Positions 11,049 through 62,210 of a DNA stretch of 64,000 nt are shown piece after piece (the first letter of the stretch is position 1; each line of letters begins with the position of its first letter). Position numbers and translations under genes: made by a program. The stretch comes from an uncultured Bacilli bacterium (GTDB lineage Bacteria; Bacillota_I; Bacilli_A; RF39; UBA660), in contig CAKOOH010000005.1 of the NCBI GenBank assembly GCA_934098485.1, positions 11,617 through 75,616 of the forward strand, in the 5' to 3' direction. Below the pieces are notes generated by a model that saw only the letters and a list, made by a program, of their open reading frames with translations, ran no database searches and was not told where the DNA came from.

Positions 11049-11076
11049 ACACTTAAATGTGATAAAATTTAAGTGT
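11049..11076. promoter_or_regulatory. Perfect 10-bp inverted repeat ACACTTAAAT-n8-ATTTAAGTGT overlapping a TGTGATAAAAT -10-like element, a candidate AbiEi autorepressor operator
   Basis: Palindrome read directly, 16 nt upstream of the AbiEi start. Confidence 0.4.
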
Positions 11077-11091
11077 GAAAGGAAAAACGAT

Positions 11092-11679
11092 ATGGAATAT
11101 GAAAATAAAATTTTAAATTTATTTAAAAATGGTTATTTAATTACTAAAAATGTTACCGATAATAATATTCCTAGGATTTACCTTACTAAACTTATTAAAG
11201 AAAATAAAATAGAAAGAGTAAGTCGTGGAGTATATATTAAAAAGAATGTTTTAGTAGATGAATTTGTCGTATTACAAAGCAAAAGTAAATATGCCATTTA
11301 TTCTAATACAACAGCACTTTATTTACATGGACTTTCTAATAGAATTCCTATTAGATATGATATTACAATTAAAAGTGGGTATAAAGGTTCACTTCAAAAA
11401 GAAGATAATGTTAATTTATTTTATACAAAAAACGAATTATTAGATTTAGGAGTTATTAACTATAAACTAAATTCCGGTAATATTATTAAAGTTTATGATT
11501 TAGATAAAACTATTTGTGACATTATTAAAAATAAAAAGAAAATAGATGCAGAAATTTTTAATAAAGCTATTAGAGAATATTTTTATAGTCAAAAGAAAAA
11601 TACTTTAAAACTATATGAATATGCTAAAAAGATGAATATTTATAATAAGGTAAGAGATACTTTCGAGGTGCTTCAATGA
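11092..11679 (+). CDS. abiEi: AbiEi-family antitoxin/transcriptional regulator (type IV TA, abortive infection)
   Basis: N-terminal wHTH with the AbiEi-typical ...RVSRGVYIKK motif. The 4-nt ATGA overlap with the downstream toxin gene is typical of a TA operon. The ATG at 11092 has the ribosome-binding site AAAGGAAA. Confidence 0.7.
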   Translation: MEYENKILNLFKNGYLITKNVTDNNIPRIYLTKLIKENKIERVSRGVYIKKNVLVDEFVVLQSKSKYAIYSNTTALYLHGLSNRIPIRYDITIKSGYKGSLQKEDNVNLFYTKNELLDLGVINYKLNSGNIIKVYDLDKTICDIIKNKKKIDAEIFNKAIREYFYSQKKNTLKLYEYAKKMNIYNKVRDTFEVLQ

Positions 11680-12527
11680 TTAAAAATAGGGATAGTTTAA
11701 AAGCAAGAACGTCTAATTTAGCTAATAAAACTAATATTCCTAATAAATATTTAATTCAAAGCTTTATGTTTGAAGCTTTATTAAAAAGAATATCAATTTC
11801 TAAATATAAAGATAAATTTATAATTAAAGGTGGCCTCTTATTATCATCTATCTTTGGTGTAAACTTAAGAAGTACTATGGATTTAGATACCACTATAAAA
11901 GGATTATCACTGGATAGAGAAACCATTATTAAAGTTATTAATGATATTATTAGCATTGAAATAGACGATAATATCAAAATTGAAATAGAAAATATTAAAG
12001 ATATTAGAGAAGAAGAATTATATTCGGGTTTTAATGTCAATTTAAAAGCCGAATTCGATGGTTTGAAAACTAATTTAATGATTGATATAACTACAGGAGA
12101 TGTTATTACTTATAAAGAAGTTGAGTTTAAATATAATACCTTATTTGATAATGAAATCATCAATATTATGACTTATAATTTTGAAACTATACTAGCAGAA
12201 AAATTTGAAACAATAATTAGCAGAAATATAGATAATACTAGAATGAAAGATTATTATGATTTATATATGTTTGTTAATTTAAAATGGGATGATATTAATA
12301 AGGATACTTTAAGAAAAGCAATTATAAACACCGCTAAAAATCGTAAAACTTTAGATTACATAGATAATGCTAGTAAATATATAGAATTAATTAGTGATGA
12401 CTCAAGATTAAAATCTCTTTGGAATAGTTATAAAAGTAATTATGATTATGCAAAAAATATAGAGTTTGAAGATACAATATATGCTATTAAAACAATTGGC
12501 AAAATTGTTACATCAGTCGGAATTTAA
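11676..12527 (+). CDS. abiEii: AbiEii/AbiGii-family nucleotidyltransferase toxin (DUF1814)
   Basis: FIIKGGLLLSSIFGVNLRSTMDLDTT matches the GG...R.T.DLD nucleotidyltransferase signature of AbiEii. It is translationally coupled to AbiEi. Confidence 0.75.
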   Translation: MIKNRDSLKARTSNLANKTNIPNKYLIQSFMFEALLKRISISKYKDKFIIKGGLLLSSIFGVNLRSTMDLDTTIKGLSLDRETIIKVINDIISIEIDDNIKIEIENIKDIREEELYSGFNVNLKAEFDGLKTNLMIDITTGDVITYKEVEFKYNTLFDNEIINIMTYNFETILAEKFETIISRNIDNTRMKDYYDLYMFVNLKWDDINKDTLRKAIINTAKNRKTLDYIDNASKYIELISDDSRLKSLWNSYKSNYDYAKNIEFEDTIYAIKTIGKIVTSVGI

Positions 12528-12774: not shown

Positions 12775-13587
12775 ATGGAAGAAATAACCTATAATAAAGT
12801 TGAAGATGAAAAAAGCCCCAAAATAAAACAGTTATATTGGGATATTGCCTTTGGTCTTCAAGACGTAGATGGATTAAAGCCATCTAAATATATGATTGAA
12901 TTATCAAAAGAACATATAAATGGGCAAAAAACGTATCATGAGGTTAAAGAAGAAATTACCTCTTATTATAAGATAAATTATGATAATCATGCTGACGATG
13001 ATGAAGAAGAAGCTGATGAAGTTTCTATCGCAATATACCAAATACTTAATAATAAATCTTTTAGATTTGATTATTTAACTTTAAAAAATTATCATCAAAG
13101 ATTATTTTGTAACTTAAATAAAGAAAAATATAATCCGGGCGTTTTTAGATTGTATAACATAACTAAAGACGAGCCAATTTTAAATGGTGATACAGTAAAC
13201 TATCAATCTTATGATATGATTGAAGAAACTTTAAAATATGATTTTAATGAAGAAGCGGCTCAAAATTATCTTGAGTTTACTGAAGAACAATTAATAAATC
13301 GTATTTGTGAGTTTACATCTAGAATATGGCAAGTACATCCTTTTCAAGAGGGTAATACAAGAACTACAGCTATTTTTATTCAAAAATATTTAAATAGCAT
13401 TGGATTTAAAGTAAACAACGAATTATTTAAAGATAATTCCCAATATTTTAGAAATGCTTTAGTAAGAGCAAATTACACAAATTATAGTAAAGGCATAAGT
13501 GCTGATACCAAATTCCTAAAAATGTTTTTTGAAAATTTATTATTATATAAAAATAATGAATTAAATAATGATGATTTAAAAATATAA
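12775..13587 (+). CDS. Fic/Doc-family protein with a degenerate active-site motif (HPFQEGNTRTT instead of HxFx(D/E)GNGRxxR)
   Basis: The Fic core motif is recognisable but with G-to-T and a missing second Arg. An extended -10 TGGTATAAT and the ribosome-binding site AAAGGAGG lie upstream. Confidence 0.65.
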   Translation: MEEITYNKVEDEKSPKIKQLYWDIAFGLQDVDGLKPSKYMIELSKEHINGQKTYHEVKEEITSYYKINYDNHADDDEEEADEVSIAIYQILNNKSFRFDYLTLKNYHQRLFCNLNKEKYNPGVFRLYNITKDEPILNGDTVNYQSYDMIEETLKYDFNEEAAQNYLEFTEEQLINRICEFTSRIWQVHPFQEGNTRTTAIFIQKYLNSIGFKVNNELFKDNSQYFRNALVRANYTNYSKGISADTKFLKMFFENLLLYKNNELNNDDLKI

Positions 13588-21465: not shown

Positions 21466-21494
21466 TTGACATGGGGTGGGGTTATTAGTACAAT
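21466..21494 (+). promoter_or_regulatory. Sigma-A type promoter TTGACA-17-TACAAT, module copy 1
   Basis: Consensus -35 with 17-bp spacing to the -10. It is followed by a ~30-nt leader with the ribosome-binding site GGGGTGA before the ATG at 21524. Confidence 0.6.
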
Positions 21495-21523
21495 TATATA
21501 GAAAATATCGGGGTGAATTAAGT

Positions 21524-23671
21524 ATGAGAAATTTTCTATATAAGAGAAAAATAATATATATAATTTTAATTGTAGTTGGGATTATTGCATTAACAGGAAC
21601 AACTTATGCGATATTTACAACAACGACCACTCAAGAAGGCACAAATACAATTAATACTTTAAAGTGCTTAGAACTAACATTTTCTAATCAAAGTGATGCG
21701 ATTAATTTAGATAATACATATCCTATGAGTGATGAAAGAGGAAAAAAGAATACACCTTATACATTTACTTTAACTAATAAATGTGGTGCATATGTGGAGT
21801 ATTCGCTAGGTCTAGCCATAAATACAAGTAATACTTTAGAAAATAAATATATAAAAACAATGTTTTCTTTAAAAAATGAAGATGGTGAAACAGTTCTTTT
21901 AACTGATAGATTAGAAGGAAAAGATTATGAAGGAAAGAAAACCTACATTCTTAAAAATGATGGCCTAGAAAATAATGCTAGTAAAGACTATAAACTAACA
22001 TTATGGATTGATGAGTCTTTAACTAATTCACAAATGAACTCAGATTTTAAAGGAAATATTATATTACAATTAAAGGCTACAAAATCACCTATTACAGTGG
22101 AATGTGATAAAGGGGATAACTCAGTAATTATAAATAAAGTTTCTTCTCAAAGTGAAGCCGTTTTTACTAAAAATTGTAAAGTTGTAGGAACCGCTAAGTA
22201 TGTTAGCAGTGATGAAGTACTTGTATATAAAGTGAAATTAGAAAACAGAAGTAATACTTATGAGGGGCTTGGTTTAAGTTATAGTCTAAGTAGTACCAAT
22301 ACATCAAATAATGGTAAAATTATGCCAAGTGTAAGTAAAGAGTATATTGGCACCGATGATGTTATATTAGGTAGTGGCATAATCGAAGGTGGAACTACGG
22401 TAGAACATGATTATAATTTAAAGATCTTTTTAAATAATATTGGAGTGCTTTCTAGTGATGTATTAAGTTCTGCATTTAAAGGACAAATAAAAATAGAATA
22501 TAGTACAGCACCTAAAGAACCAACAGGGTGGAGTGAAGCAAAAAGTGGAACCTTACTAGCCGGAATAAAAACTAATAATAATACATATACGCAGTTAATT
22601 ACTAGTCCTGGAAAAGAAACATCTTCTAGTAGTGAAGCCATCTTAGCCGCCGCACCCGATGATTATGGTATGAGTTATTATTATAGAGGAGCCGTAACCA
22701 ATAATTATGTAGAGTTTGCAAATAAATGCTGGAGGATTGTAAGAGTAACTGGAGATGGTTCAATCAAATTAGTTCTTCATAATGATAATGTAAATAATGT
22801 ATCTAGTCCATGTGCTGCATCAAATAATAGTAATACGGCTGCTTTTGCAAGATATAGTGGAACAACGTATACAACAGCATTTAATACAGCGGCAGATGAT
22901 AATACTTATGTTGGCTTTATGTATGGAGCAGCCGGATCAAGTACTTATGCTGCGACTCACGCAAATACCAATAAAAGTACGATTTTACAAAATTTAGAGA
23001 CTTGGTACAATAATAATTTAACTGCATACGAAAATAAACTAGCTGATACTATTTGGTGTAATGATAAAAGTACCCAAAAAAGTCAGTCTCTAATAACTAC
23101 TAGTTTAAATACTACCACAAATAAAATTACCAAAAGTACGTCTGCTTATCCCGGCTTAGGTTATGGAACTGATAAAACCCTATATAGTGGCCGCCAAAGA
23201 AGCAGAACAAATTACTATTTCACTAATTCCGCAAATCAGCAATATGGAACCGCCGGAACGGGACCAGATCTTATATGTCCAAATGACGATTTAGATGGCA
23301 ATTTATCAAAGTTTACCGCTTATGATACCATTAATGGTAATGGAGCCTTAGATAAAAAAATCGGCTTACTTACAACAGACGAAGTACTACTTGCTGGTAG
23401 TGTCGACTGGCATATATATGTAGCCCTTAATTATAAAATGGCAAGCATCACTAGTTACATAATAGAAAATACCAAAAATATAAAATACTGGACGTTATCC
23501 GCATATAATTTCGCAGATGAAGCAAATATTATTTATGTTGGAAGTGCTTACGCCCTTGGTAATGGTGTTGCCACCACTAGTCAAGGTTTAAGACCCGCAA
23601 TTTCTTTAAAAAGTGACACTACAATATCTAAAGGAACTGGTACTTCATCCAATCCATTTGTTATAAGTTAA
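21524..23671 (+). CDS. Secreted/surface protein with a SipW-cognate-type signal peptide and a TasA/camelysin-like N-domain (~190 aa), fused to a ~500-aa unassigned C-terminal region
   Basis: Signal anchor ...ALTGTTYAIFTTT parallels TasA ...LVGGGTWAAFND. The N-domain is paralogous (~65% identity) to the N-domain of the ORF at 58699. The track ORF starts at GTG 21476 inside the promoter; ATG 21524 with a ribosome-binding site is preferred. Confidence 0.6.
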   Translation: MRNFLYKRKIIYIILIVVGIIALTGTTYAIFTTTTTQEGTNTINTLKCLELTFSNQSDAINLDNTYPMSDERGKKNTPYTFTLTNKCGAYVEYSLGLAINTSNTLENKYIKTMFSLKNEDGETVLLTDRLEGKDYEGKKTYILKNDGLENNASKDYKLTLWIDESLTNSQMNSDFKGNIILQLKATKSPITVECDKGDNSVIINKVSSQSEAVFTKNCKVVGTAKYVSSDEVLVYKVKLENRSNTYEGLGLSYSLSSTNTSNNGKIMPSVSKEYIGTDDVILGSGIIEGGTTVEHDYNLKIFLNNIGVLSSDVLSSAFKGQIKIEYSTAPKEPTGWSEAKSGTLLAGIKTNNNTYTQLITSPGKETSSSSEAILAAAPDDYGMSYYYRGAVTNNYVEFANKCWRIVRVTGDGSIKLVLHNDNVNNVSSPCAASNNSNTAAFARYSGTTYTTAFNTAADDNTYVGFMYGAAGSSTYAATHANTNKSTILQNLETWYNNNLTAYENKLADTIWCNDKSTQKSQSLITTSLNTTTNKITKSTSAYPGLGYGTDKTLYSGRQRSRTNYYFTNSANQQYGTAGTGPDLICPNDDLDGNLSKFTAYDTINGNGALDKKIGLLTTDEVLLAGSVDWHIYVALNYKMASITSYIIENTKNIKYWTLSAYNFADEANIIYVGSAYALGNGVATTSQGLRPAISLKSDTTISKGTGTSSNPFVIS

Positions 23672-31712: not shown

Positions 31713-31753
31713 TTTTCTTTTGATATAATTACCTTAGAATGCGGAGGCCTGTT

Positions 31754-33418
31754 ATGAAAAAAGGATTTACCTTAATTGAAATGATAATATCTGTTACTCT
31801 TCTTGCATTTATTGCCGTTATAATTATGATTAATCTTAATAAAAATATTAAAGACCAAGAAGCTAAAGAGTATGCTGAATTTGTTGAGAAAGTTAAAGCT
31901 GCCGCTAATATTTATATGGCCGCTAATCCTGATTCAGAAGCATTTGCCAAAGACGAAAACGGTTATAATATTATTAGTATTGAACTTTTAGAAGAGTCTG
32001 GGTTATTAAGTGCCGATTCTCTTATTGATCCTGAAACAAATCTTCGTTTAAGTGATGAATCTACCGATGTTTCTAAAAAATATATTAAAATTTATGATGA
32101 TGAAAAATTAGAAAATAATGAAAAATCCGAAGCGACTTTAATTGAATATCCTGCTACAGGAGAAATCAATAAATATATAAGAACTGTAGAATATGAAATG
32201 AATGGCTTTGGTTCTTGTAACACTCAAAAACCAGTTGTAGGAGAAACTATCAGTATATGTAATCCTACTGATGATAATGCTACCTTTGTTAAATGGTTTT
32301 TAGATAGTGAATTAAGTAGTGAAGGTCCTAATGGTAATGACGAATATAAACCAATGGAAGATGTAAAATTTTATGCTAAATGGTATAAAAATAAAAGTTC
32401 AACTATTAGAGCGATGAAAATAGAAAGTGCCACTTCTAATCATGATGATTACAAAGTAAAAGTAACTTTAGATATTATCGATGTTTATGGTGGAAAATTA
32501 AAAGTATGTCTAAGTAAAACCAACAATATGGATACTTGTCAAAACTGGGAAGAAATTGATTCTGCTAAAGATTCTGTAACTACATATACTAAAGAAGTAA
32601 ATTTACAAGAAATGTTTGATTCTAGTTACACCACTGGTTCTGGAAAAAGTGCCAAATTATATGCTTTTGTTCAAAATACGGCATATGAAGAAGCCTTAAA
32701 AGAACGTAGAAGTACGACTAATTTAGTTGCATCAGCATATAAAACCTATAAAATATATTTATTTTGTACTGAAGTAACTGTAACATCAGAGGGAACTTAT
32801 GGTGATTGCTCAGCCCAATGTGGTGGTGGCACTAAAAGCAGAATGAATAAAGTTAAAGACAAATATTATGATGCATCATATATATTATGTGCTGATTCTA
32901 AAGAAGAAACAAGCTGTAATACAATGGATTGTTGTTCTAGTACCGTTAAGCAAGAAGGAACATATGGTGCTTGCTCAGCCAAATGCGGTGGTGGTACACA
33001 AAGTATGACTATCAATTATGTATCTGCATATGATAGCAGCAAAGTTTGTAGTTCAAAAACTGAAACCAAACAGTGTAATACCCAAGATTGTTGTTCATCA
33101 ACATATGCATCATACTCATATGGTGCTTGCTCAGCATCTTGTGGATCAGGATCGCAAAGTGTAACCATAAATTATTATTCATCATATGATAACCGCTATT
33201 GTAGTAGTGAATCCACTAGTCAGACATGCAATGCTGGAAGTTGTTGCCCGGATGGATATAAGGAAGCGTATGGACAATTTGGATGTAGTAATCCTAATAT
33301 TGGTTGTTATAAGTTAAGATACAGAACCAATGAATGCTGGGAATGCAATTCATGTGGTAATTGGGGTGAACAAGTTTGGACTAACAATGGTTATTGTATA
33401 AAATGGGTTTGCCCATAG
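31754..33418 (+). CDS. Type IV prepilin-like protein (class III signal MKKG|FTLIEM) with a large C-terminal domain ending in three thrombospondin type-1-like Cys repeats plus a Cys-rich cap
   Basis: Prepilin peptidase motif G|FTLIEM with Glu at +5 and a 20-aa hydrophobic helix. Three repeats contain CSAxCGGGTxS(R/M)...C...CNTxDCC. The ribosome-binding site GGAGG 7 nt before the ATG at 31754 is preferred over the ATG at 31739. Confidence 0.7.
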   Translation: MKKGFTLIEMIISVTLLAFIAVIIMINLNKNIKDQEAKEYAEFVEKVKAAANIYMAANPDSEAFAKDENGYNIISIELLEESGLLSADSLIDPETNLRLSDESTDVSKKYIKIYDDEKLENNEKSEATLIEYPATGEINKYIRTVEYEMNGFGSCNTQKPVVGETISICNPTDDNATFVKWFLDSELSSEGPNGNDEYKPMEDVKFYAKWYKNKSSTIRAMKIESATSNHDDYKVKVTLDIIDVYGGKLKVCLSKTNNMDTCQNWEEIDSAKDSVTTYTKEVNLQEMFDSSYTTGSGKSAKLYAFVQNTAYEEALKERRSTTNLVASAYKTYKIYLFCTEVTVTSEGTYGDCSAQCGGGTKSRMNKVKDKYYDASYILCADSKEETSCNTMDCCSSTVKQEGTYGACSAKCGGGTQSMTINYVSAYDSSKVCSSKTETKQCNTQDCCSSTYASYSYGACSASCGSGSQSVTINYYSSYDNRYCSSESTSQTCNAGSCCPDGYKEAYGQFGCSNPNIGCYKLRYRTNECWECNSCGNWGEQVWTNNGYCIKWVCP

Positions 33419-35043: not shown

Positions 35044-36711
35044 ATGGAAAATAAGTTAAAAAAAGGGTTTACCTTAATTGAAATGATTATATCTGTTACT
35101 CTTCTTGCTTTTATTGCCGTTATAATTATGATTAATCTTAATAAAAATATTAAAGACCAAAAAGCTAAAGAGTATGCTGAATTTGTTGAGAAAGTTAAAG
35201 CTGCCGCTAATATTTATATGGCCGCTAATCCTGATTCAGAAGCATTTGCCAAAGACGAAAACGGTTATAATATTATTAGTATTGAACTTTTAGAAGAGTC
35301 TGGGTTATTAAGTGCCGATTCTCTTATTGATCCTGAAACAAATCTTCGTTTAAGTGATGAATCTACCGATGTTTCTAAAAAATATATTAAAATTTATGAT
35401 GATGAAAAATTAGAAAATAATGAAAAATCCGAAGCGACTTTAATTGAATATCCTGCTACAGGAGAAATCAATAAATATATAAGAACTGTAGAATATGAAA
35501 TGAATGGCTTTGGTTCTTGTAACACTCAAAAACCAGTTGTAGGAGAAACTATCAGTATATGTAATCCTACTGATGATAATGCTACCTTTGTTAAATGGTT
35601 TTTAGATAGTGAATTAAGTAGTGAAGGCCCTAATGGTAATGACGAATATAAACCAATGGAAGATGTAAAATTTTATGCTAAATGGTATAAAAACAAAAGT
35701 TCAACTATTAGAACGATGAAGATCGAAAGCGCTACATCTAACCATAATGATTACAAAGTAAAAGTAACTTTAGATATTATCGATGTTTATGGCGGAAAAT
35801 TAAAGGTTTGCATTAATAAAACCAGCAACGTAAATACTTGTCAAAACTGGGAAGAAATTGATTCCGTTAAAGATTCTGTAACAACGTATACCAAAGAAGT
35901 AAATTTACAAAAAATGTTTGGCTATAGTTATAAAACTGGCTCTGGTAAAAGTGCTACATTATATGCTTTTGTTCAAAATGCTGCTTATGATGATGCTGTA
36001 AAAGATAATAGAATTGCAACTAATTTAGTTGCATCAGCAAATAAAACTTATAAAATATATTTATTTTGTAGCGAGTTAACCGTAACAAGCACAGGAAAAT
36101 ATAGCGAATGTTCAGCCAAATGTGGTGGAGGTACTAAAAGTAGAACAAATAAAGTTAAGGACAAATACTATAGTACTTCTTATGTAACATGTGCCGATAA
36201 AACTGAAAAAACTAGTTGCAATACAGAAGGTTGCTGCTCAAAGACCGTTAAACAAGAAGGATTATATGGTGCCTGCTCAGCCGAATGCGGTGGCGGTACT
36301 CAAAGTAGAACCATCACCTATGTATCTGCGTTTGATAGCAGCATACCATGTGGTTCTAAAACTGAAAGTAAAAAATGTAATACCGACGATTGTTGTTCTT
36401 CAGTTTATGCATCATATTCTTATGGAACGTGTTCATCATCATGTGGTGGCGGATGGCAAAATATAACTATAACTTATTATTCATCATTTGACAATCGCTA
36501 TTGTAGTGAAGAAACCACTAATCAGGACTGCAATTCTGGAAGTTGCTGCCCAGATGATTATTATGAATTGTATAGTGATCGTTTTAGTTGTAATCCTGTT
36601 TGTTATACATTAAGACCAGCAGATAATATTTATGAAAATATTCATCATACTTGCCGCGATGGATCGAAGTATAGTGAAGATGGGTATTGTTATTATTATA
36701 TTTGTCCATAA
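35044..36711 (+). CDS. Type IV prepilin-like protein, paralogue 2, with thrombospondin type-1-like repeats
   Basis: MENKLKKG|FTLIEM. The first ~215 residues are almost identical to 31754-33418. The C-terminus has CSAKCGGGTKSR, CSAECGGGTQSR and CSSSCGGGWQN repeats. Confidence 0.7.
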   Translation: MENKLKKGFTLIEMIISVTLLAFIAVIIMINLNKNIKDQKAKEYAEFVEKVKAAANIYMAANPDSEAFAKDENGYNIISIELLEESGLLSADSLIDPETNLRLSDESTDVSKKYIKIYDDEKLENNEKSEATLIEYPATGEINKYIRTVEYEMNGFGSCNTQKPVVGETISICNPTDDNATFVKWFLDSELSSEGPNGNDEYKPMEDVKFYAKWYKNKSSTIRTMKIESATSNHNDYKVKVTLDIIDVYGGKLKVCINKTSNVNTCQNWEEIDSVKDSVTTYTKEVNLQKMFGYSYKTGSGKSATLYAFVQNAAYDDAVKDNRIATNLVASANKTYKIYLFCSELTVTSTGKYSECSAKCGGGTKSRTNKVKDKYYSTSYVTCADKTEKTSCNTEGCCSKTVKQEGLYGACSAECGGGTQSRTITYVSAFDSSIPCGSKTESKKCNTDDCCSSVYASYSYGTCSSSCGGGWQNITITYYSSFDNRYCSEETTNQDCNSGSCCPDDYYELYSDRFSCNPVCYTLRPADNIYENIHHTCRDGSKYSEDGYCYYYICP

Positions 36712-52383: not shown

Positions 52384-52905
52384 ATGAAAAATAAAAAAGG
52401 TTTTACTTTAGTAGAATTATTAGCAGTTATCGTTGTTTTAGCAATTATCATGATTATCGCTGTACCATCTGTATTAAATAGTATGACAGATGCTCGTAGA
52501 AACTCATTTGCTGTTTATGGTGAAAAACTAATTAACTCAGCACAAGCACAATCTCAAGCAACTGCCATGGTTAATGGAACAATAAAAAAATGTTATACTG
52601 TTAGCGAATTAGTTGATGGTGCTCATGGTACATACGAAGGCTACGTTCAAAGACTAGTTCATGGTGAAAAAGAATATTATTTCTTAACGCTAAGAGATGC
52701 TAACTATGCTGCCGTAAATATACTTGCTCAAGAACTTGAAGCAGTAAAATCAGGCGTACAAACTACATATAAAACCCATGTAATTGTTGGAAGAGACACA
52801 ATTGATGCTGATACAGAAGGAAAGAAAGTTGACTTTACAAAATGTCCTGAAACACCTACTGTATCTGAGACTGATATTCCAAACACAACAACAACAACTT
52901 CTTAA
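52384..52905 (+). CDS. Type IV pilin-like protein (MKNKKG|FTLVELLAVIVVLAII), Thr-rich C-terminus
   Basis: Class III signal peptide with Glu at +5. Ribosome-binding site AGGAGAGAG. Confidence 0.7.
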   Translation: MKNKKGFTLVELLAVIVVLAIIMIIAVPSVLNSMTDARRNSFAVYGEKLINSAQAQSQATAMVNGTIKKCYTVSELVDGAHGTYEGYVQRLVHGEKEYYFLTLRDANYAAVNILAQELEAVKSGVQTTYKTHVIVGRDTIDADTEGKKVDFTKCPETPTVSETDIPNTTTTTS

Positions 52906-56988: not shown

Positions 56989-57018
56989 TTGACGTGTGGG
57001 GTGGGTTATTAGTATAAT
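56989..57018 (+). promoter_or_regulatory. Sigma-A type promoter TTGACG-18-TATAAT, module copy 2
   Basis: Homologous to 21466-21494. The shared leader GAAAATATCGGG(G/A)GTGA follows. Confidence 0.6.
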
Positions 57019-57047: not shown

Positions 57048-58673
57048 ATGCATATGAATATAGTCAGTGACAAAATTGGTACGTTTTTAAACTATGTTAA
57101 AAAGGATAAGAAGCTTTTGCTTGTGTTAATAATTACTATTTTAGTTTTACTTTCTTTAATATTAAACATTGCTTTTAGTTTTCTTTTACAAAAGACCGAA
57201 AAACCTAGTACAAATATTACTGTCGGCGATTTAAAATATAGTATGGTAATTAACAATGTTAATTTAAATTCTTCGGTAGGAACAAAACTACCGACTAACA
57301 CAATCATTGGTGATCGAATAATAGTGTTAAAAAGTAAAAAAACCGAGCAGTTTAATATTGTATTAACATCAAATAACGATAAAAGCACTTATTATGAAAT
57401 AATTTATCATGTTTGTTCCGATGAAAACTGTACTAGTTTTATCGATACTCCCGAAACAATTCAAATCGCGTACCATGTTGATTCACTTTCTCCCATTACC
57501 GATTTAATCGCATCTAATGAATCAAGAACAATCACCATTGTAACTGATAATCAATCTACTCAAGATTATTACGTAGAAGTGGATTTAAATGTTGGATATA
57601 AACATAATAAATTAGTCCTTCAAAAACAGATAACTAATAAATTTACGCCGCCATATTTAAGTGGTAACTTAGATATAATTGCGACCGTTAATGGGGAAGA
57701 AATAGATGGATTTCCTACGGAGCCAGATTATGAAACAAATTTTGTCTGCAAAGAAAATGATGGTACTATTTCTAAGGCCAAAGGTATTTTTAGATACACA
57801 GCCGCTAATGGTTGGGAATTTGATGTTTATGGTCTAACTAGAAATCATACAACTTGTTATATTTCATTTACAAGTACAGAGTATGTAGTAACTTATGAAC
57901 TATTATCAACTAGACTAGATTGTGCTAATATTACGGCTAAACCAGACGAACCGATAATTACCTATACTGGAAACTGTGATATAACTTCAGAAACCGAAAA
58001 AACTGATGGAAGTCACAGATGGAAATTAAAATTTACCACAAGTGGCACTCTTTCTATAAGAGGCCAAATGTTTGTTGATGCATTCCTAGTAGGTGGCGGC
58101 CAAGGAGGAGCCAAAAAAGGAGTTGGTGGTGATGGTGGAAAAACAATTAGATATAATACCGTTAGACTTGCTAATGATGATACTTACACTGTAACAATTG
58201 GTGCCGGAGGCGCTGGTGGTGTAGAAGGTAGCACGAATGGTAAATTAGGAAGCCCTAGCACATTGATTTCCAGGACTTCAGCCGAAAACTTTTCTTTAAC
58301 TTCCGCAAATGGTTATGATACTAACGCTGGCGGTGCTGGTGGGTCAGACGATGATGCTAGTAATAATAAACCAGGGCAGTGCCGTACAGACAAATACTCA
58401 GCTGAATTTCACGATCCAACTTCTGGTATTTATTATGCCGGTGGCGGTGGTGGAAGTGGTGGCCAAAAAAGCTGGTACTCTAGCGGTCAATATTGGTATA
58501 GGGACATTGCTGGCGGTTCATCATGCGGTGATGGTGCTAGTGCCGGAAGTAGTGATGGGGAAAATCCTGCCGATCCAGCCGAAGATAATACCGGTGCTGG
58601 TGGCGGTGGCGGTCGTTTTGCTGGAGGTACTGGTGGTAGTGGAATTATTATAATTCGTGATACTAGAGCGTAA
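57048..58673 (+). CDS. Membrane-anchored protein with a C-terminal ALK/LTK-type glycine-rich domain (PF12810-like)
   Basis: N-terminal TM. The C-terminal 280 aa carry GGG-rich blocks (VGGGQGGAKKGVGGDGG, AGGGGGSGGQ, GAGGGGGRFAGGTGGSG) interspersed with a WEFDVYG start, as in glycine-rich domains. Confidence 0.6.
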   Translation: MHMNIVSDKIGTFLNYVKKDKKLLLVLIITILVLLSLILNIAFSFLLQKTEKPSTNITVGDLKYSMVINNVNLNSSVGTKLPTNTIIGDRIIVLKSKKTEQFNIVLTSNNDKSTYYEIIYHVCSDENCTSFIDTPETIQIAYHVDSLSPITDLIASNESRTITIVTDNQSTQDYYVEVDLNVGYKHNKLVLQKQITNKFTPPYLSGNLDIIATVNGEEIDGFPTEPDYETNFVCKENDGTISKAKGIFRYTAANGWEFDVYGLTRNHTTCYISFTSTEYVVTYELLSTRLDCANITAKPDEPIITYTGNCDITSETEKTDGSHRWKLKFTTSGTLSIRGQMFVDAFLVGGGQGGAKKGVGGDGGKTIRYNTVRLANDDTYTVTIGAGGAGGVEGSTNGKLGSPSTLISRTSAENFSLTSANGYDTNAGGAGGSDDDASNNKPGQCRTDKYSAEFHDPTSGIYYAGGGGGSGGQKSWYSSGQYWYRDIAGGSSCGDGASAGSSDGENPADPAEDNTGAGGGGGRFAGGTGGSGIIIIRDTRA

Positions 58674-58698
58674 ATAAAAAACATTGGGTGATTTTAAT

Positions 58699-60990
58699 AT
58701 GAGAAATTTTCCATATAAAAGAAAAATAATATATATAGTTTTAATTATCATGGGAATTATTACATTAACTGGTACAACCTATGCGATATTTACAACAACA
58801 ACTACGCAAGAAGGAACAAATACAATTAATCTTTTAAAGTGCTTAGAATTAGAGTTTTCTAATCAAAAAAATATTATCAATTTAACAAATACCTATCCTA
58901 TGCGTGATGAAAGAGGAAGTAAAAATCCTCCATATACATTTACTTTAACAAATAAATGTGGAATATATTTAGAATATTCAATCGGATTAGCGGTAAACAA
59001 AAATAACACCTTAGAAGACAAATATGTTAAAACAATTTTTTCCCTTTCAAATAATGATGGTGAACCTGTTTTATTAACAGACAGACAAGAAGGAAACACT
59101 TATAATGATAGAAAAACATATATTTTTAGAAATGATGGTTTAGAAAACGGGGAGAGCAAGGATTACAAATTAGTATTGTGGCTAGATGGAACTGCCAGTG
59201 ACTCTGAGATGCAAAAAAGTTTCACTGGTAATATAATAATTAATACAAAGCCAATTAAAAATGAAGATCAAAAAACAATAACTGTCGATTTAAATGGTGG
59301 AAATTTATTACAAGAATTAAACGAAGTATATAGAGAAGGAATGAAAATAAAATTACCCGTGCCAGCCAAAGCCGGATATCATTTTGATAAATGGGAAATA
59401 ACTGCGGGCGATGCTACCATTGATAAAAATAACTATTTAACTATTGGCAAAGAGAATATCACTTTAAAAGCCTATTATGCCGGTGGTGTAACTCTTACAT
59501 TAGAATTAAATGGTGGAAATACTACACAAACCTTTAAAGAGGATTATGGTCAAGGTGAAACAATAACGTTAATAGAACCAACAAAAGAAGGCTATTTATT
59601 TGGCGGTTGGAAAATCATAAGTGGAAATGGAATAATAAATGGTAGCACCTTAACAATGAATACCGAAAGTGTCGTAATAGAGGCAATTTGGAAAAAACAA
59701 GTAACTTTAACAGTAGAACTTAATGGTGGGAGAACTACGCAATCTTTTAAAGATGAATACTTTGAAGGCGATAAGATAACTCTAAATGAACCAACAAAAG
59801 AAGGTTATTTATTTGGTGGTTGGAAAATCACCAGCGGTGATGGAATAATAAATGGAAATATATTAACAATAAGTGCAGAAAACATAAAACTAGAAGCAAC
59901 TTGGAAAAAACGAGTAACTTTAACTGTCGATTTAAACGGTGGCATTACTACTCAAAATTTTAAATCAGCATATGGTGAAAAAGATGAAATTACCTTAACC
60001 ATTCCCACAAGATCGAATATTGCATTTATCGGTTGGGAGATAGTATCTGGGGATGCTACAATAAATAATAATAAACTAATCTTTGGATCAAACGATGTAA
60101 GCATTAGAGCCTTATGGCGAGAAACATGGACTTTTGACTTTACGGGTTCGGAGCAAACATTTACTGTGCCATATAGAGGCGTGTATAAACTAGAAATATG
60201 GGGAGCGCAAGGTGGAAGTGTTTCTTATTCAGGAACCTATAATGGTGGTTATGGGGGATATTCAAATGGTAGTATTAATTTAACTAAGAACGAAGTACTA
60301 TATATTAATGTAGGCGGTTCTGGAAGTGGTGGAGTAGCAACATCTTCATATTCCGGAGGATATAATGGTGGTGGCTCTACTAATGAAACTAGGGGCACAG
60401 ATCATTATCATGCATCAGGTGGTGGCGCTACGCATATTGCCAATGTTTCTGGAATATTATCATCTCTATCATCAAAAACTAGTAATATTTTAATTGTTGC
60501 TGGCGCTGGCGGTGGCGGCTACCGACATACTGAATCAGAAAAATATTCTAGTATAGGCGGTTCTGGTGGTGGCATACAAGGCACTGATTCAACTACCAAT
60601 GGTAGTAATGGTAAACAAGGATTAGGTGGATATCAAACCGCTGGTGGGAAATATGAAGGTGGCAGTGGTTCTAGCAGTATTTTTGGAAGTTTTGGCCAAG
60701 GTGGAACGCCAGGTAACTCTTGGGGCTCTGCTGGTGGCGGCGGCTTTTATGGCGGTGGTGCATCTAATGGCGATGTTGGATCAAGCGGTAATAGCGGTGG
60801 TGGCGGTGGCTCTGGTTATATTGGAAATTCGCTTCTTTCAGATAAAGTAATGTATTGTTATAATTGTACATCATCATCTGAAAATGCCACAAAAACCATA
60901 TCAACTACATGTACGAATTCATCAGCCACAGAAAACTGTACAAAACAAGGTAACGGCTATGCAAGAATAACATTTATAAATTTATCATAA
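58699..60990 (+). CDS. Secreted/surface protein: SipW-cognate-type signal + TasA-like N-domain + Flg_new (Listeria-Bacteroides) repeats + ALK/LTK-type glycine-rich domain + Cys-containing tail
   Basis: N-terminus MRNFPYKRKIIYIVLIIMGIITLTGTTYAIFTTTTTQEG. Repeated LNGG.TTQ.F...GE.ITL.EPTKEGYLFGGWKI.SG Flg_new units from about 59278 to 60120. Glycine-rich-domain blocks follow: WTFDFTG...YINVGGSGSGG...HASGGGATHI...IVAGAGGGGY...GSAGGGGFYGGGASNG...NSGGGGGSGYIGNS. Confidence 0.7.
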   Translation: MRNFPYKRKIIYIVLIIMGIITLTGTTYAIFTTTTTQEGTNTINLLKCLELEFSNQKNIINLTNTYPMRDERGSKNPPYTFTLTNKCGIYLEYSIGLAVNKNNTLEDKYVKTIFSLSNNDGEPVLLTDRQEGNTYNDRKTYIFRNDGLENGESKDYKLVLWLDGTASDSEMQKSFTGNIIINTKPIKNEDQKTITVDLNGGNLLQELNEVYREGMKIKLPVPAKAGYHFDKWEITAGDATIDKNNYLTIGKENITLKAYYAGGVTLTLELNGGNTTQTFKEDYGQGETITLIEPTKEGYLFGGWKIISGNGIINGSTLTMNTESVVIEAIWKKQVTLTVELNGGRTTQSFKDEYFEGDKITLNEPTKEGYLFGGWKITSGDGIINGNILTISAENIKLEATWKKRVTLTVDLNGGITTQNFKSAYGEKDEITLTIPTRSNIAFIGWEIVSGDATINNNKLIFGSNDVSIRALWRETWTFDFTGSEQTFTVPYRGVYKLEIWGAQGGSVSYSGTYNGGYGGYSNGSINLTKNEVLYINVGGSGSGGVATSSYSGGYNGGGSTNETRGTDHYHASGGGATHIANVSGILSSLSSKTSNILIVAGAGGGGYRHTESEKYSSIGGSGGGIQGTDSTTNGSNGKQGLGGYQTAGGKYEGGSGSSSIFGSFGQGGTPGNSWGSAGGGGFYGGGASNGDVGSSGNSGGGGGSGYIGNSLLSDKVMYCYNCTSSSENATKTISTTCTNSSATENCTKQGNGYARITFINLS

Positions 60991-61094: not shown

Positions 61095-61168
61095 TTGCTT
61101 AAATTTGAAAATAGTCTAAAATTTAAGCAAGATTTAAGCAAGATTTAAGCAAGATAAATTGCTTAAAT
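61095..61168. repeat. Operator-like array: TTGCTTAAAT ... three tandem (G)ATTTAAGCAA units ... TTGCTTAAAT, upstream of the Fic gene
   Basis: Three direct 11-bp repeats flanked by their inverted copies. A -10 GATATAAT follows at about 61181-61188. Confidence 0.8.
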
Positions 61169-61211
61169 CCCATTTTTACGATATAATAAATAATAATGAA
61201 GGTGATTTACT

Positions 61212-62210
61212 ATGGATAATTATAATCCACCATTTACAATTACTAATACAATGCTTGATTATATCTCATCAATAATGGAAAAAATCGGTAAAATTGATAA
61301 TTATACTTATTTGGAAAAAATGCCTAATCTTAGAAGAAATAATAAAATTAAATCTATTCATTCATCTTTAGCGATTGAAGCAAATTCATTATCACTATCT
61401 GAAGTTAAAGATGTAATTGCTGGCAAATATGTTTTAGGCCCCCAAAAAGAAATCCAAGAAGTATTAAATGCCTACAAAGCCTATGAAATGATTAAAGAAG
61501 TTAATCCTTATTCTTTAAAAGATTTAAAAATGGTTCACGGCGTCATGACTGAAAAAACCATTATACTATCTGGAAAATTTAGAACTGGTGGCGAAGGTGT
61601 TTTTGATAGTAAAGGACACTGCATTCATGTCTGTCCGCCGGCAAAACAAGTAGAACCTTTAATGGTTCAACTGTTTGCTTGGATTAAAAATAACAAAGAT
61701 ACTATCCATCCTTTAATATTATCATCAGTATTCCATTATGAATTCGTATTTATTCATCCATTTGCTGATGGTAATGGAAGAATGGCTAGATTATGGCAAA
61801 ATATATTATTAACAAACTGGAAAGATTTTTTCGAATATTTACCAATTGAAACAAGAATAAAAGAATATCAAAGTGAATACTATGCTGCAATTTCCCATTG
61901 TCATGAAGCAGCAAGTTCAAATGAATTTATTGAGTTTATGTTAAAAATGATAGATGAAGTACTTGAAAGCTTAGTAAAAGTGACAAGAGAAAATCTAACT
62001 GAAAAAGATATTAACGTTAATAAACTACTAAATATAATGACTATAAATGTACCCATGAGCGCTTATGAAATAATGGAAAAATTAGAAATAAAATCCAAAG
62101 AAACTTTAAGATCAAAATATTTAGATCCAGCAATTGAAGAAGGCTTAATTCTTTTAACAATTCCTGATAAACCAACTAGTAAAAACCAAATGTATTATAA
62201 AGCAAAATAA
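61212..62210 (+). CDS. Fic-family protein with the canonical HPFADGNGRMARLW motif
   Basis: Complete HxFx(D/E)GNGRxxR motif. An N-terminal SLAIEAN segment resembles, but does not exactly match, the inhibitory (S/T)xxxE(G/N) helix. Confidence 0.8.
   Translation: MDNYNPPFTITNTMLDYISSIMEKIGKIDNYTYLEKMPNLRRNNKIKSIHSSLAIEANSLSLSEVKDVIAGKYVLGPQKEIQEVLNAYKAYEMIKEVNPYSLKDLKMVHGVMTEKTIILSGKFRTGGEGVFDSKGHCIHVCPPAKQVEPLMVQLFAWIKNNKDTIHPLILSSVFHYEFVFIHPFADGNGRMARLWQNILLTNWKDFFEYLPIETRIKEYQSEYYAAISHCHEAASSNEFIEFMLKMIDEVLESLVKVTRENLTEKDINVNKLLNIMTINVPMSAYEIMEKLEIKSKETLRSKYLDPAIEEGLILLTIPDKPTSKNQMYYKAK

Follow-up and report, generated by a model that had tools for sequence, protein, structure and literature searches.

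We asked what an uncultured gut bacterium might do with two adjacent genes for glycine-rich proteins, one of which resembles the extracellular part of an animal receptor. The genes, termed ORF A and ORF B (open reading frames A and B), lie in a stretch of 64,000 nucleotides (nt) from an uncultured Bacilli bacterium (GenBank assembly GCA_934098485.1, contig CAKOOH010000005.1, positions 11,617 to 75,616 of the forward strand), which we refer to as the window. An earlier inspection of the letters without database searches, here called the sequence-only reading, had proposed that both proteins end in the glycine-rich domain (GRD) of the metazoan receptors ALK and LTK. We found that this holds for ORF B and that ORF A carries a domain of another family.

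A Pfam search, which the sequence-only reading had recommended, matched the C-terminal part of ORF B to PF12810 (ALK_LTK_GRD) with E=7.4e-34 and 118.2 bits against a cut-off of 24.5, covering amino acids (aa) 493-760 and positions 7-243 of the 243-position profile. The motif blocks that had been quoted in favor of this assignment (WTFDFTG, LYINVGGSG, SGGGATH...ILIVAGAGGGGY and GGGGGSGYIGN) are all present in the translation. We then compared a family profile of 126 bacterial homologues with 177,635 PDB sequences. The profile recovered ALK (1.2e-10), SCD-2 of C. elegans (2e-8) and LTK (1.7e-4), and no other sequence in that set at E<0.9. The ORF B family and ALK align through non-glycine blocks (FxVPxxGxYxLxxWGAxGG, LxKxxxLYIxVG, GGGAT) as well as through LIxAGGGG, GxFGxGG and GGGGGYxGG. 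The family profile was needed for this match because phmmer with ORF B or ORF A as a single sequence did not find ALK among the PDB sequences.

The predicted structure led to the same receptors. Given the 126-homologue alignment, AlphaFold2 (AF2) modeled aa 485-763 with a mean predicted local distance difference test (pLDDT) score of 94.4 and a predicted template modeling (pTM) score of 0.93. When the model was compared with the PDB using Foldseek, as had also been suggested, the best 21 matches were all ALK, LTK or SCD-2 structures (E 6e-7 to 5e-5, probability 1.00). A tail-tip chain of mycobacteriophage Bxb1 (9D93 Qb, 4.5e-3) came after these, with noise below it. In the model, the GRD is predicted to cover the entire ALK 'TG' unit, with strands at either end and about 13 Gly-rich segments in between. 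The hidden Markov model (HMM) match, the PDB-sequence profile and the predicted fold together identify the head of ORF B as a true homologue of the metazoan ALK/LTK TNF-like/glycine-rich ligand-binding module. Judged by its sequence, ORF B is a homologue of the ALK domain and not an ALK-family receptor; Flg_new repeats and PF12810 are its only Pfam matches and the chain stops three residues past the GRD.

Bacterial homologues of the GRD are about 50% identical to one another, many non-Gly columns included, and their near-invariant polar and aromatic residues include E15, W17 and H95. The best-conserved stretch is the C-terminal tail at domain positions 229-279 (the GRD counted as 60151-60987), with the consensus MYCYNC...TKTISTTC...NC.K.GNGYA.IT and four near-invariant cysteines spaced CxxC-x14-C-x8-C. 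The profile alignment to ALK stops before this tail, whose cysteines may pair as two disulfides or bind a metal.

The remainder of ORF B consists of an export or anchor segment, an N-domain and a repeat stalk (Table 1). We placed its start at ATG 58699, where the mechanical ORF list has TTG 58684, because a 763-aa metagenome protein (P0001) with 99% identity begins there. The TGTTYAIFTTTT motif at the end of the hydrophobic segment is kept in all full-length ORF B orthologues. We take this motif (TYAIFT) to be similar to those of SipW/TasA/camelysin-type signal peptides, a likeness that no HMM backs. The TasA-like N-domain that had been ascribed to ORF B found no support from HMMs or from the PDB profile and was dropped. 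The N-terminal 205 aa of ORF B had no Pfam match even at E<=10, neither ORF A nor ORF B matched TasA/camelysin (Peptidase_M73, PF12389) at E<=10 or a TIGR04088-type model, and TasA was absent from the PDB-sequence profile matches and from the ORF A Foldseek matches. The prepilin motif G-F/M-T-L-x-E was likewise absent from the N-termini of ORF A and ORF B, and PF07963 (N_methyl) did not match there.

Between the N-domain and the GRD we found four Flg_new units, beginning at aa 194, 266, 337 and 408. The sequence-only reading had counted four to five; the repeats are there, a fifth unit is not. Flg_new and Flg_new_2 (PF09479/PF18998) matched in four stretches (E=1e-22 and 3e-21; 80.3 and 75.8 bits), so that Flg_new, like PF12810, lies above the Pfam threshold in ORF B, and TIGR02543 matched the repeats with E=4e-12. 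A 213-nt tandem DNA repeat detected by TRF at 59575-59964 corresponds to the middle two units. Close ORF B orthologues differ in how many Flg_new units they have, some with 2 and others with 4 or more, and some orthologues carry two GRDs.

The sequence-only reading took the end of ORF A to be a further-diverged version of the ORF B domain. This did not hold. Its sole Pfam match is Gly_rich_2 (PF21722; E=4e-16, 60.1 bits against a cut-off of 24.3, profile positions 3-224 of 226), and PF12810 did not match ORF A at E<=1. When we aligned the trimmed family profiles of the two domains, hhalign returned a probability of only 1.6%; untrimmed full-length family alignments gave 15%, resting on a short GGGG stretch. 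Cross-HMM scores fell inside the distributions of reversed, mono-shuffled and block-shuffled controls. Because of the hhalign result and the control-level scores we no longer regard the two domains as one type.

Instead, the C-terminus of ORF A pointed to phages. The full-length AF2 model had a pLDDT of 75.9 with a long N-terminal helix at aa 4-50, and Foldseek gave generic Ig/PapD-like matches only for the all-beta region, which has no Pfam match. For the glycine-rich part the top PDB match was the Bxb1 tail tip (9d93_Qa, E=0.011); the remaining PDB matches of the model were generic beta-sandwiches, and ALK was not among the 50 listed. A profile of the ORF A family returned nothing useful from the PDB sequences. 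Among the predicted viral structures of BFVD, however, ORF A had 121 matches at E<=1e-3, nearly all of them tailed-phage proteins named 'Glycine-rich domain-containing protein' and including mycobacteriophage minor tail proteins. Its Gly_rich_2 domain matched phrog_2295 (E=4e-15), and a 343-aa PF21722 protein (P0193) sits between the portal and lysis genes of a 22.6-kb phage contig. Given the null comparisons with ALK, the viral structural matches and the phage context of P0193, we conclude that the C-terminus of ORF A is the phage-type polyglycine-rich domain PF21722. Full-length ORF A orthologues form about 30 clusters in gut metagenomes, at 43-55% identity.

How widespread are such proteins? 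Among 1.84 billion proteins clustered at 50% identity, the ORF B GRD had 5,711 representatives at E<=1e-3 and 780 at E<=1e-30, including giant proteins with up to ten GRD copies. A catalogue of 5.8 billion proteins yielded 1,887 GRD matches at E<=1e-5, most of them 340-490 aa long with PF12810 only and some with a prepilin N_methyl N-terminus. The exact architecture of ORF B, Flg_new followed by PF12810, occurs in about 20 clusters. Counts obtained with a profile of the ORF A C-terminus were used only where Pfam confirmed them. In GTDB, with one genome per species, more than 457 stretches encode a GRD relative; the statements on origin and title that follow cover the best 80 of these. All 80 are records of uncultured metagenome-assembled genomes (MAGs) or metagenome bins, mostly from human gut with some from rumen and other sources. 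Their titles mostly read 'Bacilli' or 'Tenericutes', with a few Firmicutes, Clostridiales and Muribaculaceae, and examples are CAG:582, CAG:605, CAG:1193, UMGS735 and Hadza MAGs. The family is strongly expanded: several paralogs per genome are found in gut and rumen MAGs, a single MAG contributes up to seven loci, and three to five of the genes can stand in tandem. In other MAGs the homologues are scattered among housekeeping genes. The survey of related genomes that the sequence-only reading had called for thus showed that the architecture recurs.

Relatives also occur in phages. The ORF B GRD matched phrog_1589 (E=1.4e-36) as well as phrog_7388 and phrog_5811, all families of unassigned function, and on IMG/VR contigs a PF12810-type GRD adjoins tape-measure-like, virion structural, amidase, endolysin and integrase genes. 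In one group of sister contigs the phage GRD gene (~312 aa) is intact in L091, L094, L095, L098 and L101, and appears split into two ORFs under translation table 11 in L096, L099, L100, L102 and L107 (78-158 kb, sample 3300045988); the split could reflect stop-codon recoding or assembly and frameshift differences. A tblastn search of 50,697 phage records with both GRDs returned no match although PHROGs and IMG/VR did show phage relatives, probably because of low-complexity filtering.

The sequence-only reading had been unable to place the domain combination in any described family. It was right insofar as our literature search turned up no publication that deals with PF12810 or PF21722 proteins of bacteria; the combination itself is common in catalogues, with the clusters mentioned above and hundreds of genomic copies. 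Pfam already contains PF12810 and PF21722, and the architecture is frequent, so that ORF A and ORF B add members to families that are known though uncharacterized. Reviews count the ALK/LTK GRD among a handful of natural folds with a polyglycine-II bundle, together with snow-flea antifreeze proteins, Obg, acetophenone carboxylase and S16 gp38 (10.1101/2023.11.25.568672; PMC13243192), and bacterial homologues of the ALK/LTK GRD go unmentioned in these reviews of polyglycine-II/polyproline-II bundles.

Table 1. Features of the ORF A/ORF B locus. Positions are those of the window.
Feature	Position	Strand	Description
Putative promoter	56989-57018	+	TTGACG-18-TATAAT, 11/12; upstream of ORF A; from consensus match
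ORF A	57048-58673	+	541 aa; N-terminal membrane helix, two beta-sandwich regions, C-terminal PF21722 domain
ORF A hydrophobic segment	57111-57185	+	aa 22-46 (LLLVLIITILVLLSLILNIAFSFLL); putative signal anchor or uncleaved signal peptide
ORF A all-beta region	57210-57875	+	aa 55-276; two sandwich-like domains; AF2 pLDDT mostly 80-92
ORF A Gly_rich_2 (PF21722)	58041-58658	+	aa 332-537; start near aa 300 in the AF2 model
ORF B	58699-60990	+	763 aa; hydrophobic signal, N-domain, four Flg_new repeats, ALK/LTK-type GRD
ORF B hydrophobic signal/anchor	58726-58791	+	aa 10-31 (IIYIVLIIMGIITLTGTTYAIF); ends in the conserved TGTTYAIFTTTT motif
ORF B N-domain	58792-59277	+	aa 32-193; no Pfam match; same module in ORF C
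Four Flg_new (Listeria-Bacteroides/InlB B-repeat) units	59278-60132	+	~71 aa each; Pfam, TIGR02543
ALK/LTK-type GRD of ORF B	60133-60987	+	aa 479-763; Pfam, profile against PDB sequences, AF2 and Foldseek
Putative terminator hairpin	61142-61169	+	11-bp stem, then T-rich tail; downstream of ORF B; from consensus scan

The arrangement of the two genes suggests that they belong together. Only 25 nt separate the stop of ORF A from the start of ORF B, the promoter-like site lies just 3' of the hairpin, taken as the efp terminator, that follows efp, and from the sequence ORF A and ORF B look like one two-gene operon. The G+C content is about 28% across the window and rises to 35% over the pair, which has efp, serS, a PBP2-type gene and a Fic-like gene as its neighbors. 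The ORF directly 3' of ORF B (61212-62210, +) was judged Fic-like by its translation alone. Elsewhere in the window an AbiEi/AbiEii type IV toxin-antitoxin pair (11059-12527, +) is followed by a Fic/DOC protein (12775-13587, +).

A PF21722 gene followed in tandem by a gene for Flg_new and PF12810 is also found in another MAG (L042). The GRD nearest to that of ORF B (71% identity) comes from the Hadza gut MAG CAKOQC01, where one chain joins PF12810 and Flg_new to two to three PF21722 domains (L004 239-5596, 1,785 aa; L005 2461-11229, 2,922 aa), and both families are likewise carried by P0167 and P0169. Fusion in one genome and kept adjacency in others suggest that the products of ORF A and ORF B work together.

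The heads appear to be exchangeable. A third protein of the window, ORF C (21524-23671, +, 715 aa), has its N-terminal module in common with ORF B (BLASTP, 51% identity over 317 aa, E=3e-75), with the likeness strongest over the first ~185 aa. In place of Flg_new and GRD, ORF C ends in DUF6273 (E=4.6e-5), which is not glycine-rich. The same N-module with another C-terminal head shows that heads are swapped on a single scaffold. ORF C (there as the ORF at 21476-23671) had also come up as a possible glycine-rich relative in matches to the ORF A C-terminal profile, which we discarded, as the match arose from non-GRD C-termini contaminating that alignment.

Pilin-like scaffolds carry the same heads. 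In relatives (P0026-P0036 with the motif) a GFTL(V/I)E prepilin N-terminus precedes Flg_new and GRD or the GRD alone, and other clusters combine a prepilin N-terminus, Flg_new and either GRD or PF21722. A run of five consecutive genes for prepilin plus ALK-type GRD, 405-605 aa each, is present in the Bacilli bacterium RGIG7548 from water buffalo omasum (L078 5551-12803). Within the window, two near-duplicate proteins of ~555 aa (31739-33418, + and 35044-36711, +) have a GFTLIE prepilin N-terminus (N_methyl), one Flg_new unit and three Cys-rich thrombospondin type-1 (TSP1)-like repeats each (PF19028, E=5e-11 and 1e-14), a repeat typically found in metazoan adhesion proteins. Between them lie two unannotated genes of ~260 aa. 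A 173-aa type IV pilin-like protein (52384-52905, +; N_methyl E=1.5e-8, KKGFTLVELLAV) stands alone between gyrA-like and AP-endonuclease-like genes. Because proteins built of prepilin, Flg_new and TSP1 modules share the window with ORF A and ORF B, the genome probably displays several adhesion-type modules on similar scaffolds. By sequence, then, the organism seems to mount a set of exchangeable heads on stalks that are pilin-like or anchored in the membrane.

What might the two proteins do? We consider it somewhat more likely than not, at roughly 0.55, that ORF A and ORF B are two modular proteins that bind at the cell surface, with glycine-rich heads that would serve as rigid binding modules by analogy. 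The operon would then make cell-surface proteins of an uncultured low-GC Bacilli-type gut bacterium. Each N-terminal hydrophobic segment would hold its protein in the membrane or export it, placing the rest outside the cell. A beta-rich stalk would extend from there, formed by the two sandwich domains in ORF A and by the N-domain and four Flg_new units in ORF B, and would present the head at its far end. The heads may have a polyglycine-II core that bears surface loops and may tether the cell, as rigid binders, to a surface ligand of host material or of other microbes, and the two proteins may act together. A surface location is supported by the hydrophobic N-termini and by the lack of any cytoplasmic-type domain in ORF A and ORF B. 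The proposed role of the heads rests on analogy with three systems. The ALK GRD binds peptide ligands (10.1101/2023.11.25.568672), and two sources describe the glycine-rich polyproline-II (PPII) domains of phage S16 gp38 and of the Bxb1 tail tip as host-recognition parts (10.1101/2023.11.25.568672; PMC13252515).

One observation weighs against such a role. GRD conservation is very high across paralogs and species, polar and aromatic positions included, a pattern more in keeping with a single shared ligand or a structural function than with recognition of varied targets. The GRD might thus bind a single conserved ligand of the cell's own envelope or matrix, or polymerize, and the proteins would be structural components of wall, matrix or pilus instead of adhesins for foreign targets. 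The near-invariant residues, the giant proteins with their many GRD copies and the prepilin N-termini of relatives agree with this idea, as does the likeness of the signal motif to the TasA type. On the other hand, a long stalk precedes the head of ORF B, and the head is C-terminal in prepilin-type relatives, an arrangement more typical of outward-facing binding modules, and no matrix or fiber family HMM matched. We regard a structural or own-envelope role as rather unlikely.

About as doubtful is a broader proposal. PF12810 and PF21722 heads might be receptor-binding modules from a common stock, passed back and forth between the tails of phages and the pili or membrane stalks of reduced-genome gut Bacilli. 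ORF A and ORF B would then be a two-component adhesin, and the large PF12810 family of bacteria and phages would be the evolutionary source of the metazoan ALK/LTK ligand-binding domain. Its bolder extension, that the heads of gut bacteria bind ALKAL-type host ligands, is less likely.

Could the two proteins instead derive from a phage, for example from a prophage remnant, a tailocin or the receptor-binding protein of a phage-like particle? Structural modules of phages and PHROG families do include PF21722 and PF12810-type GRDs, and the models of ORF A and ORF B both match the Bxb1 tail tip. The housekeeping flanks and the signal segments nevertheless make this improbable. No phage structural, lysis or integrase gene was seen among the ORFs that were annotated, the pair is flanked by efp, the PBP2-type gene, the Fic-like gene and serS, membrane or signal segments as found at both N-termini are normally lacking in virion proteins, and homologues in other MAGs also lie among housekeeping genes. 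About as improbable is the idea that the conserved E/W/H/N/Q residues are a catalytic or metal site, which would make the GRD proteins stalked, secreted enzymes: near-invariant non-glycine residues and the CxxC...C...C tail would suit an enzyme, but no enzyme family or fold matched, the strong PDB matches are all non-catalytic ALK/LTK domains, and E15, W17 and H95 are replaced in the ALK alignment. Low-complexity glycine similarity without a real domain, to which the compositional bias of the region and the empty phmmer and BLAST searches against PDB sequences and phage records might point, is effectively refuted for ORF B by 118 bits over the full PF12810 model, by a family profile that matches ALK/LTK/SCD-2 and not other Gly-rich PDB proteins, by a pLDDT 94 model whose 21 best PDB matches are these receptors, and by ~50% identity over many non-Gly columns.

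If ORF A and ORF B are surface binding proteins, as we favor, GRDs could help to identify further such proteins in the poorly known uncultured gut microbiota. The well-predicted ALK-type GRD of ORF B belongs to a family that is large in uncultured gut Bacilli and phages. Its short, single-domain and highly conserved members offer easy material for folding studies of polyglycine lattices, and bacterial and phage GRDs could help to trace the origin of the metazoan receptor domain.

How do the two proteins compare with known systems? With InlB-type surface proteins ORF B has Flg_new units in common, four of them above the Pfam threshold, and a family profile weakly matches the InlB B-repeat; unlike them, ORF B has no leucine-rich repeat (LRR) domain and no GW or LPXTG anchoring, and carries another head domain. 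Modular type IV pilins of Gram-positive bacteria join a functional head to an N-terminal pilin module. The GFTL(V/I)E N-termini on ORF B relatives and the prepilin, Flg_new and TSP1 proteins of the window appear to resemble them, while ORF A and ORF B themselves differ in having no prepilin motif. With phage polyglycine domains ORF A has its PF21722 C-terminus in common, as in the 'Glycine-rich domain-containing' tail proteins among its 121 viral matches. The Bxb1 tail tip (9D93) is a weak match, ORF A pairing with chain Qa and the ORF B GRD with chain Qb, and S16 gp38 (6F45) was not among the matches recovered. Unlike phage tail proteins, ORF A and ORF B begin with membrane or signal segments, and their genes sit among housekeeping genes and in no virion module.

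The closest comparison is with the TG domain of ALK, LTK and SCD-2 (PF12810; PDB 7LRZ, 7MZY, 7N00, 7NX1, 7LIR). The identity of the ORF B GRD to ALK/LTK is only 16-24%, and the receptor tyrosine kinase architecture, with an intracellular kinase and a membrane-proximal EGF-like module, was not found in ORF B by Pfam, where the GRD stands outside any kinase, MAM, LDLa or EGF context. The ALK insert around CPSTNQ...HEW is missing from ORF B. E15, W17, H95 and the four-Cys tail are the bacterial family's own; ALK has ISGYGAAGG for LEIWGAQGG and GGGATY for GGGATH. Even so, homology is supported by HMM and profile, with non-glycine blocks in common, the predicted beta strands and Gly-rich segments follow the same order (about 13 segments in ORF B against 14 PPII helices in human ALK), and the PDB contains no strong structural neighbors of the ORF B GRD besides ALK/LTK/SCD-2.

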